Source of the DNA: Thermoanaerobaculia bacterium
Lineage (GTDB): Bacteria; Acidobacteriota; Thermoanaerobaculia; Multivoradales; UBA5704
NCBI GenBank assembly: GCA_038248205.1
Contig: JBBRUC010000001.1
Coordinates: 32,480 to 96,479 of the forward strand
Length of the DNA stretch: 64,000 bases
Reading direction: 5' to 3'
In this document: positions 48,622 through 55,565 of the stretch, one piece after another
How positions within the stretch are numbered: the stretch's first letter is position 1
Layout of the letters: the number at the start of each line of letters is the position of its first letter
The notes under the pieces: generated by a model
What the model was told of the DNA's origin: nothing
The model's database searches: none
Seen by the model: the letters and a program-made list of their open reading frames with translations, nothing else
Program-made: the position numbers and the translations under genes

Positions 48622-50391
48622 ATGGCGCGGCTGTTCGCCTATCTGGCGCCCTACCGCACCCGGCTCAACTTGGGCATCTCGTCCTCGGTGCTCAACAAGG
48701 TTCTCGATCTGATGCCGCCGCTGCTGGTCGGCTGGGTGATCGACTCGCTTCGCGGCGAGCCTCCTGCCTGGATTGCCCGGCTCGCGGGAACTTCCGAAGC
48801 CTGGAACCTCGCGGTGGTGCTCGCCGCGCTCTCGGTCGCGATCTTCTTCTTCGAGAGCCTGTTCCAATGGGGCTACCAGCATTTCTTCATGACGTTGGCC
48901 CAGGAGGTCCAGCACGACCTCCGGCTCGACGCCTACGAACGCATTCAGCGCCGCGAGATCGCGTTTTTCGAAGAGCACCGCCTGGGCGAGACGCTCGCGA
49001 TGTTGAACGACGACGTGAACCAGCTCGAACGTTTCTTGAACAACGGTGCCAACGAGCTGATCCAGACCGTGGTGCTGTTCATCTTCTCGGGCATCGTGCT
49101 GTTCGACACCTCGTGGCGCCTGGCGTTCATCGCAATGGCGCCGATCCCGTTGATCCTCTGGGGCAGCCTCGCCTACCAGCGCCGGATCGCGCCGCGCTAC
49201 AAGCGGGTGCGCGAAGCGGTGGGCAGCCTGTCGAGCCGGCTCGAAAATAACATCGGCGGCATCTTGGTCATTCAAAGTTTCGGCGCCGAAGCGTTCGAAC
49301 TGGACCGGGTGCGCGCCGCGTCGGCCGAATATCGGGAGGCGAATTTTCAGGCGATCCGGCTCTCGGCGATCTTCGTCCCGGTGATTCGCATGGCGATCGT
49401 GCTCGGCTTCGCCGGGGTGCTCCTTGTCGGCAGCCACTGGATTCTCGAACAGCGCAGTTGGATCACGGTCGGCCAGCTGGTCCTGTTCGCAATGATGACC
49501 GAACGGCTGCTCTGGCCGCTGGTCCGCCTCGGCCAGGTTCTGGACGAATATGAGCGGGCGAGGGCTTCGGCGCGGCGGACGTTCGGGTTGCTCGACACGC
49601 CATCGAAAATCGTCGAGCCGGCCGATCCGATCCGCATCGAGCGCGCCCGCGGCGAGCTGGAACTGGCGAACGTCGATTTCACCTACCAGCGCGGCGACCG
49701 GATTCTCGACCACCTGTCGTTCCACATCGCCCCGGGCGAGACGATCGGCATCGCAGGCCCCACCGGAGCGGGCAAATCGACGTTGATCAAGCTGCTGCTC
49801 CGCCTCTACGACCCGACCGGCGGCGCGGTCAAGCTGGACGGCCACGACTTGCGCGACCTGGCGCTCGAAGACCTGCGTCGCTCGATCGCCCTGGTCTCCC
49901 AGGACGTCTATCTCTTCCACGGTTCGCTACGCGAAAACATCGCCTATCGCGAGGTCGGCGTACCGTTCGAAAAAATCGTCGAAGCGGCAAAGTACGCCGA
50001 GCTGCACGATTTCATCGCCGGCCTGCCCGAGGGGTACGACACTCTCGTTGGAGAGCGCGGCATCAAGCTCTCCGGGGGCCAACGTCAGAGGCTGTCGATC
50101 GCCCGGGCGATCTTGAAGGACGCACCGATCCTGATCCTCGACGAAGCGACCAGCTCGGTCGACACCGAAACCGAGCGCGCAATCCAAGAAAACCTCCGCC
50201 GCTGGACCGCCGGCCGCACCGCCCTGATCATCGCCCATCGCCTCTCGACCATCCGCAACGCCGACCGCATCCTCGTCCTACGCGACGGCCGGCTCGCCGA
50301 AGAGGGTTCCCACGACGAGCTGATCGCTAGAGGGGGCACCTACGCCGATCTTTGGCACGTGCAGTCGGGCGAGCTGGTGGAGGTGGGGTAG
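48622..50391 (+). CDS. ABC exporter, fused TMD-NBD (MsbA/ABCB-like half transporter)
   Basis: Six TM helices, then an NBD with GPTGAGKSTL, LSGGQRQRLSIARAIL and ILDEATSSVD. No N-terminal C39 peptidase domain. Start chosen at ATG 48622 (MARLFAYLAPYRTRL). Confidence 0.85.
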   Translation: MARLFAYLAPYRTRLNLGISSSVLNKVLDLMPPLLVGWVIDSLRGEPPAWIARLAGTSEAWNLAVVLAALSVAIFFFESLFQWGYQHFFMTLAQEVQHDLRLDAYERIQRREIAFFEEHRLGETLAMLNDDVNQLERFLNNGANELIQTVVLFIFSGIVLFDTSWRLAFIAMAPIPLILWGSLAYQRRIAPRYKRVREAVGSLSSRLENNIGGILVIQSFGAEAFELDRVRAASAEYREANFQAIRLSAIFVPVIRMAIVLGFAGVLLVGSHWILEQRSWITVGQLVLFAMMTERLLWPLVRLGQVLDEYERARASARRTFGLLDTPSKIVEPADPIRIERARGELELANVDFTYQRGDRILDHLSFHIAPGETIGIAGPTGAGKSTLIKLLLRLYDPTGGAVKLDGHDLRDLALEDLRRSIALVSQDVYLFHGSLRENIAYREVGVPFEKIVEAAKYAELHDFIAGLPEGYDTLVGERGIKLSGGQRQRLSIARAILKDAPILILDEATSSVDTETERAIQENLRRWTAGRTALIIAHRLSTIRNADRILVLRDGRLAEEGSHDELIARGGTYADLWHVQSGELVEVG

Positions 50392-50568
50392 CGGGAGCCT
50401 CCGGGTAACGCCCAAGACCTCGTCAAAATCGATTGCCTTGTAGGGGCGCCCCCCCGTTGTCCGGCCTTCAGGACACCCCCGTGGGCGCCCAAGAAGGCCA
50501 CGGGCTCCAACGTTCCATCCGGGGTACCTCGTGTCGCGGCCGGGCGTGCTAGATTTTGTTCCGACTCG

Positions 50569-53494: not shown

Positions 53495-53549
53495 TACCGA
53501 TCACCCGGATCGTCGGGCACGAGCGGCGATCCGGGCGTCTTCAATTCCC

Positions 53550-55565
53550 CTACTTCCCCGCCTTCAGGTGCTTGTCGTACCAGGCGAGATACCGCTCATA
53601 GCGGTCCTTCTGGTAGGTCGGCTTGCGGATTCCGTGATTCTGGCCGGGGTAGATGATCAGCTCGGTTTCGACTCCGAGGCGTTTTAACGCCTGGTAGAGC
53701 TGCTCGGAGTTCAACAACGGCACGTTGACGTCGTCCTGGCCGCAGAGGATGAGGGTCGGCGTCTTCACGTTGTCGACGTGAAACCAGGGAGACATCTGGG
53801 TCCACCGCTCGACGTTGCGCCAGGGGAGCCCGAGTTCGGTCTCCCACTCGTACTGGTAGTGGTCGGTGCCGTAGTTGGCGAAATAGTTCGCCTCGGAGGC
53901 TCCCGAAATCGCTGCCTTGAAGCGCGTGGTCTTGGTGATCGCGTAGTCGGTGAGGATGCCGCCGTAGCTCCAGCCGCCGACGCCCAGGCGATCTGGATCG
54001 GCCACTCCCATCGCGATCGCGCCATCGACCACGGCCATGACGTCTTGGAAGTCCAAGTTTCCCCAGTCCGCCCAGATCGCATAGCAAAAATCGCGGCCGT
54101 AGCCGGTCGAACCGCGCGGGTTCGCCGCGACCACGGCGTAGCCTCCGGCGGCAAGCATCTGCCACTCTAAATTCCAGCCGGTCGTGTACTGCGCCGTCGG
54201 ACCGCCGTGAATGCGCAGCACCGTGGGCAGTTTCTTACCCGTCGGCGCATCTGGCGGGCGGGTCAAGAAGGTGTCGATCTTCGTGCCGTCGGCGCTGGTC
54301 GCTTGGAACCGTTCGAGCTTCGAGAGTTTGATGCCGCGAAGGAATTCGTCGTTCGCGTGGGACCGGCGGACCAGATCCCCCTTCGTGTCGAGCGCCGAGA
54401 CCTCGCCCGGGTGGTCCCATTGCGACTCGATCACCGCGACCTCGCCTTTTGGCCCCAGCGCGTAGTCTTGGACCTCGCGCTCTCCGGCCACCACCCGATC
54501 GACCGCGGCGGATGCGCCCGCTTCGACCGAAACCCTCGCGAGGTGCTGGTTGCCGCCGTCTTCGAGCAGGAAGTAGATCTGCTTGCCGTCGGGAGAGAAC
54601 CGAGGAGAACTGATGTTGCGATCCAGGCCCCGCGTGAGGTCGCGCGGCGCCCCGCCCGCCGCCGGCACAATTCCCGCGGAGACGATGCCGTACCACATGT
54701 CGGCGACCGGCCCGCCCGCGACGTAGACGATCTCTTGGCCGTCCGGAGACCAGGAAGGCGAGGTGTCGGACCCTGGCGAGGTGGTCACCGCGCGCGGCTT
54801 GGCCCCCTCTTTCGCTTCGACCACGAAGATGTCGGAGTTTTGATTCGAATCGGGGCTCGCCGTCCGATTGCTGGTGAAGGCGATCTGGGTACCGTCCGGC
54901 GACCAGACCGGCTCGCTGTCGTCGAAGGCGCCCTCGGTGACCTTGACCGTCTTTTTCGTGGCGAGGTCGAACACGTAGAGGTGCTCGCGGATCTCGCGCA
55001 GATACCCCTCGCCGTCGCGCTTGAACTGGAGCCGGTCGATGACGATCGGCTTCGGCGTTTTCTCGTCGTCCTCTTCGTCCTCCTTCGCGGCATCCGGATC
55101 GACGTCCGCAACGATCAGCGCGAGCCTCTTACCGTCGCGCGACCAGGCGAGATCCGAGACGCTCGCCTTGTATTCGGTCAACTGCACCGCCTCGCCGCCC
55201 CGCCGATCGAGCAGATAGACCTGGGTCTCATCGCCGTCGCGATCCGAAAGGAAGGCGAGATACTTGCCGTCCGGGCTCCAACGCGGCGTGTTCTCCGACT
55301 TCTTACTAGAAGTCAAACGGATCGCCTCGCCGTCGCCGGAGAGCGGAGACATCCAGATGTCTGTGTTCGACTTGTCCTTCGTCAAGTCCATCGACTGGAC
55401 CGTGTACGCCACCCATTGCCCGTCCGGGCTGATGTGGGGATCGTCCACGGACTTGAAAGCGGCGACATCCCCAGGCTTGAGCGAGCGGGGAGAATCGGCG
55501 GAAAGGGCAGGGAGTGCGGAGGCGACGAGCAGACAGCCGAGCAGAGAGACGCGACAGAAACGCAT
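53550..55565 (-). CDS. Secreted S9-family serine peptidase (prolyl oligopeptidase/DPP-like) with N-terminal beta-propeller
   Basis: Signal peptide MRFCRVSLLGCLLVASALPALSA. TolB-like propeller repeats (SPDGQWVAY, SPDGKYLAF, SRDGKRLAL, SPDGTQIAF, SPDGQEIVY, SPDGKQIYF). Catalytic GGWSYGG plus C-terminal Asp/His. Confidence 0.85.
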   Translation of the reverse strand: MRFCRVSLLGCLLVASALPALSADSPRSLKPGDVAAFKSVDDPHISPDGQWVAYTVQSMDLTKDKSNTDIWMSPLSGDGEAIRLTSSKKSENTPRWSPDGKYLAFLSDRDGDETQVYLLDRRGGEAVQLTEYKASVSDLAWSRDGKRLALIVADVDPDAAKEDEEDDEKTPKPIVIDRLQFKRDGEGYLREIREHLYVFDLATKKTVKVTEGAFDDSEPVWSPDGTQIAFTSNRTASPDSNQNSDIFVVEAKEGAKPRAVTTSPGSDTSPSWSPDGQEIVYVAGGPVADMWYGIVSAGIVPAAGGAPRDLTRGLDRNISSPRFSPDGKQIYFLLEDGGNQHLARVSVEAGASAAVDRVVAGEREVQDYALGPKGEVAVIESQWDHPGEVSALDTKGDLVRRSHANDEFLRGIKLSKLERFQATSADGTKIDTFLTRPPDAPTGKKLPTVLRIHGGPTAQYTTGWNLEWQMLAAGGYAVVAANPRGSTGYGRDFCYAIWADWGNLDFQDVMAVVDGAIAMGVADPDRLGVGGWSYGGILTDYAITKTTRFKAAISGASEANYFANYGTDHYQYEWETELGLPWRNVERWTQMSPWFHVDNVKTPTLILCGQDDVNVPLLNSEQLYQALKRLGVETELIIYPGQNHGIRKPTYQKDRYERYLAWYDKHLKAGK

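Follow-up and report, generated by a model that had tools for sequence, protein, structure and literature searches.

The 64-kb stretch of Thermoanaerobaculia bacterium DNA analyzed here (GenBank assembly GCA_038248205.1, contig JBBRUC010000001.1, positions 32,480 to 96,479; hereafter the window, with a G+C content of ~66%) contains a gene coding for an 838 amino acid (aa) protein in which three domains are joined: an RRE (recognition element for RiPPs, peptides made by the ribosome and modified after translation), an E1-like domain, and a tryptophan halogenase dependent on flavin adenine dinucleotide (FAD). A gene for a 72-aa peptide rich in Cys and Trp lies downstream. Our reading, to which we give a probability of about 0.55, is that the 838-aa protein is a leader-guided peptidyl-Trp halogenase, with the adjacent 72-aa peptide as its most plausible local substrate and others probably encoded elsewhere. 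The fusion appears to be a RiPP tailoring halogenase that acquired the docking module of a cyclodehydratase, an architecture that appears to be undescribed. Its components are listed below in window coordinates; loci of relatives are designated by L-numbers and homologous proteins by P-numbers.

50569-53085, + strand: RRE/E1-like/halogenase fusion gene, 838 aa (open reading frame list and domain searches)
50569-50844, + strand: RRE, residues 1-92, a winged helix of beta strands and three helices (AlphaFold2 model and profile)
50866-51507, + strand: E1-like (ThiF/MoeB-fold) domain, residues 100-313 (TIGR03882, sub-threshold, and Foldseek)
51157-51168 and 51421-51432, + strand: codons of the Cys4 site, C197, C200, C285 and C288 (alignment)
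51538-53082, + strand: FAD-dependent tryptophan-halogenase domain, residues 324-838 (PF04820 and 5UAO matches)
51574-51591, + strand: FAD motif GGGTAG, residues 336-341 (invariant)
51772-51774, + strand: Lys402, presumed catalytic (alignment to PyrH and MibH)
52330-52350, + strand: GWCWNTP, residues 588-594 (alignment)
52534-52557, + strand: FVEPLEST with Glu658 and Glu661 (alignment)

An earlier note, made from the sequence alone, had proposed an open reading frame (ORF) at 50569-53085 with this three-domain order. Both the 838-codon (+) frame and the architecture hold, and all of the motifs that it named are present: GVGPCFAC (residues 193-200), GGGTAG (336-341), GVGE (369-372) and GWCWNTP (588-594).

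The halogenase domain

The assignment of the C-terminal part to the tryptophan halogenase family, and as a full-length domain, is well founded. PF04820 (Trp_halogenase) matches residues 332-785 at 354.5 bits (cut-off 21; E 1.2e-105) over positions 2-451 of the 458 in the model. The top match in the Protein Data Bank (PDB) is 5UAO, the structure of MibH (E 8e-132, 444 bits, 46% identity over 505 aa), and PyrH, RebH, Thal and PrnA score far lower (E 1e-49 to 1e-58, 170-199 bits), such that the domain is closer to MibH than to the halogenases of free Trp. Residue conservation was followed in an alignment of 25 diverse homologs with identities down to 44%. GGGTAG, K402, E658, E661 and FVEPLEST are invariant, as are W589, W591 and P594 of GWCWNTP; the Ile of the WxWxIP motif is replaced by Thr or variable, and the corresponding motif of MibH is GWCWTIP. 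K402, in PTLKLGIRF, aligns with YKLGIRF of PyrH and TWKLGIRF of MibH, and FVEPLEST, with E658 and E661, aligns with FVEPLES of both enzymes. From what is known of PrnA, RebH and PyrH we take K402 (equivalent to PrnA K79) and the Glu equivalent to PrnA E346 to be the catalytic residues. The earlier note had regarded a non-halogenating monooxygenase lacking the catalytic Lys as the outcome that would tell against it; the Lys and the Glu are both present and invariant. Judged from these alignments, the C-terminal domain is a peptide-modifying halogenase of the MibH type and not a generic monooxygenase.

The RRE-E1 docking module

The N-terminal 320 residues resemble the docking region of the TruD and LynD cyclodehydratases in profile and in predicted fold. 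A profile of 20 sequences covering residues 1-322 matches TruD (E 6e-10), LynD (8e-7) and MccB (5e-5) in the PDB, and the TruD/LynD alignment starts at position 48 and spans the RRE (domain 1) through both CxxC pairs. An AlphaFold model of this region, built on the 20-sequence profile alignment, has a mean confidence score (pLDDT) of 91.6, and Foldseek returns TruD and LynD as its best matches (E 6e-13 to 1e-10), followed by MccB, MoeB, McbB, UBA5, PaaA and ThiF, with TruD, LynD, MccB and McbB falling between E 6e-13 and 1e-7. These results agree with the earlier claim of a ThiF/E1-like docking domain of the type found in thiazole/oxazole-modified microcin (TOMM) systems. The AlphaFold2 models are confident for residues 1-92, which adopt the winged-helix fold of an RRE, and a full-length model (pLDDT 86.7) resolves three domains with disordered linkers at residues 93-99 and 314-323.

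Model-based annotation is less generous to this region. TIGR03882 scores 33.4 bits on the window fusion, below its cut-off of 36.9, and 19.9-29.2 bits on homologs; the profile and fold matches nonetheless support homology to the TOMM 'C protein'. The RRE had been described as PqqD-like, and Pfam finds no PF05402 (PqqD) match in the window fusion, but the fold and the profile alignment to domain 1 of TruD and LynD sustain the description, and the homologs P0022 and P0023 carry weak PqqD matches (PF05402 or a weak TIGR03859).

C197, C200, C285 and C288 are invariant in the 25 homologs and form a CxxC...CxxC site, predicted from the sequence to be a structural Zn site in a degenerate, Zn-stabilized E1-like domain. 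In contrast, the same homologs do not conserve the GxGxxG-like loop (VLVLGEGDLA), the ATP-binding element of E1 enzymes. This fits a domain that, like its counterparts in LynD and TruD, probably serves as a scaffold and has no catalytic role.

Distribution and origin of the fusion family

In a word-indexed search with the fusion, 299 or more proteins match at E<=1e-10. The 120 highest-scoring ones are nearly all full-length and come mostly from metagenome-assembled genomes (MAGs) of Thermoanaerobaculia, Holophagales and other Acidobacteriota. A scan of GTDB species confirms 318 loci, including ones in Nostoc, Aliinostoc, Altericista, Polyangia/Myxococcota and some Proteobacteria. Family members are publicly annotated as 'tryptophan 7-halogenase' or as 'TOMM precursor leader peptide-binding protein'. 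Like the earlier note, which knew of no described RRE-E1-halogenase fusion, we found no published description of one in full-text searches of a literature that is incompletely searchable.

When the N-terminal module by itself was used as the profile in an exhaustive search, 498 cluster representatives matched at E<=1e-10, and 62 did so at E<=1e-30. Among the matches listed, the majority are 800-900-aa proteins. Seven module proteins of 582-778 aa were sampled, of which six are RRE-E1-YcaO fusions and one (704 aa) has a halogenase domain; proteins of 320-390 aa come next, two of which (341 and 393 aa) were sampled and have no Pfam match. The simplest reading is a domain swap: as the nearest docking modules are those of YcaO cyclodehydratases of the fused type, a MibH-type halogenase would have taken the place of the YcaO domain.

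The context of distant members says that the family does consist of RiPP enzymes. The RRE-E1 module is shared by the Nostoc homologs, which are 880-895 aa long (hhalign probability 99.25). Encoded around them are a second halogenase, stand-alone and 500 aa long, YcaO and TfuA, a LanB-like dehydratase in split form, pairs of JmjC/cupin and MBL-fold proteins, and a Nif11-type precursor with ...MCCW at its end; these precursors read ...ELESVAGG/LASSTVKETVMCCW. The srp pathway has an LCCCW core that receives thiazolines and a C-terminal Trp bromination (PMC10858898), and the Nostoc clusters with ...MCCW cores recall it by analogy. At L020 (an Acanthopleuribacteraceae MAG, 7986-15339) genes for two Cys-rich precursors with GG leaders and for a LanM come immediately after that of a full-length fusion homolog.

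We note several further features of these loci. A conserved RiPP cluster of the composition given for Nostoc, with its tandem halogenases, is seen in the Nostoc, myxobacterial and proteobacterial relatives (L030-L068; for example L046, 148-17738, of Nostoc linckia NIES-25). In relatives with 66-68% identity a SnoaL_3/DUF4440 gene lies directly 3' of the fusion on the same strand (L081, 8954-9433; L091, 7581-8084; L093, 6540-7052), and directly 5' of it, beside a zf-HC2 anti-sigma-like gene, L091 and L094 have a conserved gene (~168 aa) without a family match. Both may be functional partners of the fusion in this subclade.

The 72-aa peptide gene

The features between the stop codon of the fusion and the next gene downstream are as follows.

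53067-53202, no strand: imperfect inverted repeat over the fusion stop codon, with arms at 53067-53102 and 53167-53202 (sequence)
53259-53266, + strand: Shine-Dalgarno sequence GGAAAGGA of the 72-aa ORF, 9 nt 5' of the ATG
53276-53494, + strand: 72-aa RiPP-type precursor ORF (NF038153 leader, homologs, dN/dS)
Within 53276-53494, + strand: leader, approximately residues 1-27 (MKKKKLTLSRETLAHLESRGLRAVRGA), and core, residues 28-72
53387-53389 and 53432-53434, + strand: codons of Trp38 and Trp53
53504-53535, no strand: hairpin with a 12-bp stem between the convergent precursor and S9 peptidase genes (inverted-repeat search)

The ORF had been predicted as a small frame with a strong Shine-Dalgarno sequence, 11 Cys and 2 Trp, and it is as described; the distance from the fusion stop codon to its start is 190 nt, not the 62 bp given. 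All 11 Cys are in the 45-residue core, in which Ser, Thr and Cys are abundant, and the Trp residues, W38 in CTDWVTC and W53 in CPPWC, are bracketed by Thr and Cys. Residues 1-26 match the leader model NF038153 (lant_leader_L1a) by a narrow margin, at 22.8 bits with a cut-off of 22 (E 7.6e-5).

Homologs are found in L003 (with identical copies in L087 and L088), L004 and L005, and as P0123. Trp38, Trp53, the first eight core Cys and the G26-A27 junction are invariant in all five aligned rows. The remaining three Cys are present in all four full-length homologs, the L004 copy ending at the end of its contig. The ratio of nonsynonymous to synonymous substitution rates (dN/dS) is 0.21-0.40 in the annotated frame, indicating purifying selection; in four of the five other frames it is mostly near or above 1, and in the mirror antisense frame 0.34-0.62. 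The Shine-Dalgarno sequence is kept as GGAAAGGAG in L003, L004 and L005, together with ~90 nt further upstream. On this comparative evidence the 72-aa ORF is real and under selection, and its product has a leader of the RiPP type.

The peptide is rare. There are only three clusters of it among 5.8 billion proteins, and no further relative emerged when metagenomes of the Joint Genome Institute (JGI) were scanned with protein patterns. A degenerate CDTCPPWC DNA pattern yielded one true match in the JGI metagenomes, which is identical to L003, one chance match, and nothing new. A hidden Markov model of the leader, run over all fetched loci, matches only within the same clade.

The spacer ahead of the ORF had been called structured. 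It does contain an imperfect inverted repeat with arms of 36 nt, whose core, 13 bp of perfect complementarity (53083-53095 and 53174-53186), begins at the fusion stop codon, but the fold has a z-score of only -1.77 relative to shuffled sequences and the repeat is not kept in L004 or L005. A regulatory RNA or a terminator was considered and rejected, as there is no Rfam match and no T-run and the repeat is not terminator-like. The hairpin at 53504-53535 may be a bidirectional terminator; it has no T-run and is not called by a terminator scan.

Relationship between the peptide and the enzyme

The peptide gene is situated 0.2-2.5 kb downstream of the fusion gene in four distinct genomes, and this holds for every copy with a readable context. 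By analogy with other systems, a cognate pair is usually recognized by an enzyme with an RRE next to a peptide that has a leader and invariant Trp, and the 72-aa peptide is plausible as a substrate of the fusion on the strength of the sequence comparisons. A flavin-dependent halogenase acting in this way would proceed as follows. The RRE would bind the leader of the ribosomal precursor, with the RRE-E1 region (residues 1-92 and 100-313) serving as a docking module that grips the precursor by its leader, as in TruD and LynD. Reduced flavin (FADH2), supplied by an unlinked flavin reductase, would react with O2 and halide to give hypohalous acid, and Lys402 and Glu658/Glu661 would direct the hypohalous species onto the Trp indole of the tethered core. 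The 72-aa gene would be transcribed separately, with W38 or W53 as candidate halogenation sites, and its 11 Cys would presumably form disulfides, or thioethers through unlinked enzymes.

Several observations weigh against this interpretation. The peptide is present in four of the eight distinct syntenic loci (the window, L003, L004 and L005) and absent from the other four (L001, L002, L089 and L090); the fusion is intact in these, and it is thus not dependent on the 72-aa peptide. No recognizable precursor is seen at the more distant acidobacterial loci examined, where the fusion has 66-69% identity and below and the contexts are unrelated. Adjacency itself is of limited weight, since the entire neighborhood is syntenic within the one narrow clade that has the peptide. 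The two precursor cores at L020, LALATERNDTSGCCGSTEGTGTCAGPTPTSGCCGTAIE and AAFATEHLCTDGCCGATECTGTCAGQQPTTGCCGSSVS, contain no Trp, the sole Trp of these peptides being in the leader. Neither a flavin reductase, nor a leader protease of matching specificity, nor a dedicated exporter was identified in the window. Finally, the full-length model has a predicted template modeling score (pTM) of 0.63 and places its domains relative to one another with low confidence. The co-occurrence that the earlier note had asked for is thus seen in half of the syntenic genomes and at none of the more distant acidobacterial loci examined, and the peptide is not the sole reason for the enzyme's existence. Precursors scattered around the genome, as in other RiPP systems, would by analogy reconcile the observations on both sides. 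Among the homologs, the one at L081 has a flavin reductase 2.4 kb away. Small genes beside the distant homologs at L081 and L083 were considered as precursors, and none is precursor-like.

The strongest competing explanation, which we regard as unlikely without dismissing it, is that the fusion is a leader-guided halogenase whose substrates are encoded elsewhere, and that the 72-aa peptide gene, whether for a RiPP or a bacteriocin, has no connection with it and happens to share the variable island; its product could be, for example, a disulfide-rich peptide or one of the class I lanthipeptide type that unlinked enzymes mature. The intact fusions without an adjacent precursor, in four syntenic genomes and at the distant loci examined, are in keeping with this, and so is the position of the peptide in a hotspot, the interval between the ABC exporter and S9 peptidase genes, in which the genes vary among relatives. 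In L003/L088 the peptide is set apart from the fusion by two opposite-strand genes, for a DUF4143 ATPase and a CPBP (Rce1-like) protease, and has its own conserved upstream region. Moreover, its leader fits a class I lanthipeptide model and the Ser/Thr and Cys composition of its core is typical of lanthipeptides. However, all copies of the peptide with a readable context are downstream of a fusion gene, both Trp38 and Trp53 are invariant, the window has no LanB, LanC, LanM, YcaO or radical S-adenosylmethionine (rSAM) partner, and an RRE enzyme adjoining a leader-bearing peptide usually signals a cognate pair. The same L003/L088 arrangement bears on transcription. Given the intervening opposite-strand genes, the peptide must have its own promoter there, and ~90 nt upstream of it is still conserved; co-transcription of fusion and precursor, which the earlier note had treated as necessary, is by this comparison not required.

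A more ambitious form of the reading that we favor is that RRE-E1-halogenases are a widespread, undescribed leader-dependent class derived by a YcaO swap, and that in this clade the enzyme and the 72-aa peptide make a minimal two-gene system and a new RiPP class, in which halogenation of one or two Trp of the 11-Cys core is the only class-defining enzymatic step. This strikes us as doubtful, because it rests on the pairing of enzyme and peptide and on other maturases missing from a 64-kb view of a larger genome.

Other maturation machinery and further alternatives

No YcaO, LanB, LanM or TfuA was detected in the window by tblastn or by Pfam on the ORFs tested, in line with the earlier statement that no YcaO or LanB/LanM is nearby. 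The window thus has neither the YcaO cyclodehydratase of a TOMM cluster nor the LanB and LanC of a class I lanthipeptide gene set. A LanB-like tblastn match at 59873-60361 (E 0.04) is treated as a chance match; it is in a low-G+C island, in a 518-aa protein without a family match.

With these absences in mind, it is improbable, clearly more so than the alternatives above, that the RRE-E1 module serves mainly as the 'C-protein' partner of a stand-alone YcaO, a bifunctional scaffold for cyclodehydration or thioamidation as well as halogenation, with the Cys of the peptide converted to azolines. The idea draws on the module's nearest non-halogenase relatives, which are fused C-D YcaO cyclodehydratases, on the Nostoc and myxobacterial homologs that co-occur with stand-alone YcaO, TfuA and ...MCCW cores, and on the srp pathway, in which thiazoline formation on the LCCCW core is combined with Trp bromination (PMC10858898). 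It is opposed by the failure to detect YcaO or TfuA in the window and in the called genes of the acidobacterial loci fetched by exact protein match. In addition, to our knowledge YcaOs of the TfuA type do not need an E1 partner.

Least probable of all, and very much so, is a C-terminal domain that works as a flavin monooxygenase without halogenating, together with a small ORF that is either not a substrate or not a gene: PF04820 does take in uncharacterized members and the fusion has weak partial NCBIfam matches to QhpG, LodB and geranylgeranyl (GG)-reductase models, but these fall far below their cut-offs (QhpG, 25.5 against 240 bits), the identity to MibH extends across the full domain with the Lys and Glu invariant, and the small ORF has both the low dN/dS and the conserved Shine-Dalgarno sequence of a gene.

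Flanking genes and the variable island

The locus is bordered by two conserved genes.

48532-50391, + strand: MsbA-like ABC exporter, a half-transporter (ABC_membrane and ABC_tran), flanking conserved gene, probably outside the system
53550-55565, - strand: S9/PD40 peptidase with a signal peptide, convergent with the 72-aa ORF, flanking conserved gene, probably outside the system

The earlier note had proposed these as partners for export and leader removal, and had taken the secreted S9 peptidase to be a downstream member of the locus. The signal peptide and the S9 family assignment stand, but the gene is on the opposite strand, and a dedicated partnership was rejected on grounds of conservation and synteny. 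Both genes are more conserved than the fusion (in L001-L005 the exporter is 92-94% identical and the S9 peptidase ~85%, against 70-77% for the fusion), and both are present where the precursor is absent (L001, L002, L089 and L090), so that neither varies together with it. By Pfam the exporter has no C39 peptidase domain, and hence none to process the Gly-Ala junction. S9 enzymes of the prolyl-oligopeptidase type are expected to need a Pro at the cleavage site, and the leader-core junction of the 72-aa peptide has no Pro residue. From these comparisons the exporter and the S9 peptidase look like the frame of a variable island, and a four-gene locus does not hold.

In L001, L003, L004 and L005 the exporter and the fusion are separated by 0.7-4.5 kb of unrelated genes, which in L003/L088 code for a TIR protein and a STAND NTPase. 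What the interval between exporter and S9 peptidase contains differs among the relatives: the TIR protein and STAND NTPase, a membrane protein of ~175 aa, a CPBP (Rce1-like) intramembrane protease, or an ATPase of the DUF4143/AAA_14 type (L003, 4007-7143 and 10581-12901; L001, 10658-11902; also L088, L089 and L090). The CPBP gene recurs beside the fusion or the precursor in L003/L088, L089 and L090, and its product could be an immunity or processing factor. An apparent fusion of the ABC exporter to the halogenase in L002 was rejected as a long open frame in high-G+C DNA: the exporter has a stop codon, and the fusion is in a different frame that overlaps or abuts it. The S9 peptidase matches Dpp5 best (276 bits) and the Atxe2 family model of lasso-peptide isopeptidases below threshold (208.6 against 400 bits); it is conserved in relatives and is 30 kb from the lasso cluster of the window.

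That cluster is complete and is located at 19535-23248 on the minus strand, ~27 kb upstream of the fusion locus.

23018-23248, - strand: lasso precursor ...YSSPRLIVFGDLSGLTQ/AAGNFGNPDGFFGSRANSKPDPGKGTRS (NF033528, 25.7 bits)
21310-23091, - strand: Asn-synthase-like cyclase (NF033535, 189.9 bits, below cut-off)
20326-21276, - strand: HprK-related kinase
20010-20444, - strand: PqqD B1 chaperone
19535-20026, - strand: B2 protease (NF033537, 67.4 bits, above cut-off)

The lasso core has a C-terminal Ser, a hint that the lasso peptide is phosphorylated. It has no Trp and was rejected as a target of the halogenase. Beyond the cluster are genes on the minus strand for giant proteins of 2016 aa (23488-29538) and 2102 aa (29946-36254) and for a 586-aa protein (36592-38352), all with SdrD_B / CarboxypepD_reg repeats and probably surface adhesins. 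The low-G+C island at 59600-62000 (0.505 at 60-61 kb, against ~0.66) codes for the 518-aa protein without a family match, beside small genes at 61483-62002 that by eye resemble DUF4160 and DUF2442 genes; the island was probably acquired horizontally.

Comparison with known systems

In NAI-107 the halogenated Trp lies within a lanthionine ring. The enzyme that halogenates it, MibH (the NAI-107/microbisporicin Trp-5-chlorinase, 5UAO), has its fold, subfamily, FAD motif and catalytic Lys and Glu in common with the fusion, and ChlH of chlorolassin is a relative of MibH; both act on peptidyl Trp in Cys-rich RiPPs. MibH and ChlH are ~500-540 aa enzymes without an RRE or E1 domain, whereas the window fusion has an extra 320-aa docking module, and they are described as stand-alone, as are the leader-requiring, flavin-dependent Trp brominases SrpI and MppI (PMC10858898, PMC11791876, PMC12615548, bioRxiv 10.1101/2025.01.12.632611). 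MibH works only after leader removal, on the cyclized peptide (bioRxiv 10.1101/2025.01.12.632611; PMC12615548), whereas the docking module of the fusion implies leader-dependent action. SrpI and MppI modify the cores LCCCW and ACWRWSG, respectively (PMC10858898, PMC11791876), and the halogenated Trp of MppE is inside a lanthionine ring (PMC11791876). SrpI is stated to have no embedded RRE and to use an LxxxxL motif, located on the surface of the halogenase, for binding the leader (PMC10858898). By these descriptions the fusion differs from SrpI and MppI in that recognition would pass to the fused RRE-E1 module.

The fused cyanobactin heterocyclases of the TruD, LynD and PatD type (RRE-E1-YcaO) have the same fold, the same domain order, the CxxC...CxxC site and a non-catalytic E1-like domain, but they end in YcaO, whereas the fusion ends in a halogenase and is without ATP-dependent cyclodehydration. 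The 72-aa peptide, with its NF038153-type leader and Ser/Thr/Cys-rich core, is similar to class I lanthipeptide precursors; it differs in a core that is unusually dense in Cys (11 of 45 residues) and in having no LanB or LanC within the window.

Peptide halogenases are sought as biocatalysts, as peptides that bear an aryl halide can be cross-coupled at that position. Those known so far have limits: MibH needs a fully cyclized, leaderless substrate, SrpI modifies only a C-terminal Trp and needs a long leader, and ChlH is promiscuous. Built-in RRE-E1 docking, if our reading is correct, would permit programmable, leader-addressed halogenation. We know of few experimental studies of acidobacterial RiPPs, and the family, with hundreds of clusters in Acidobacteriota, Cyanobacteria and Myxococcota, includes cultured Nostoc strains. 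If correct, this reading would also make the cyclodehydratase docking module a portable cassette, one that evolution has re-used with another catalytic domain.

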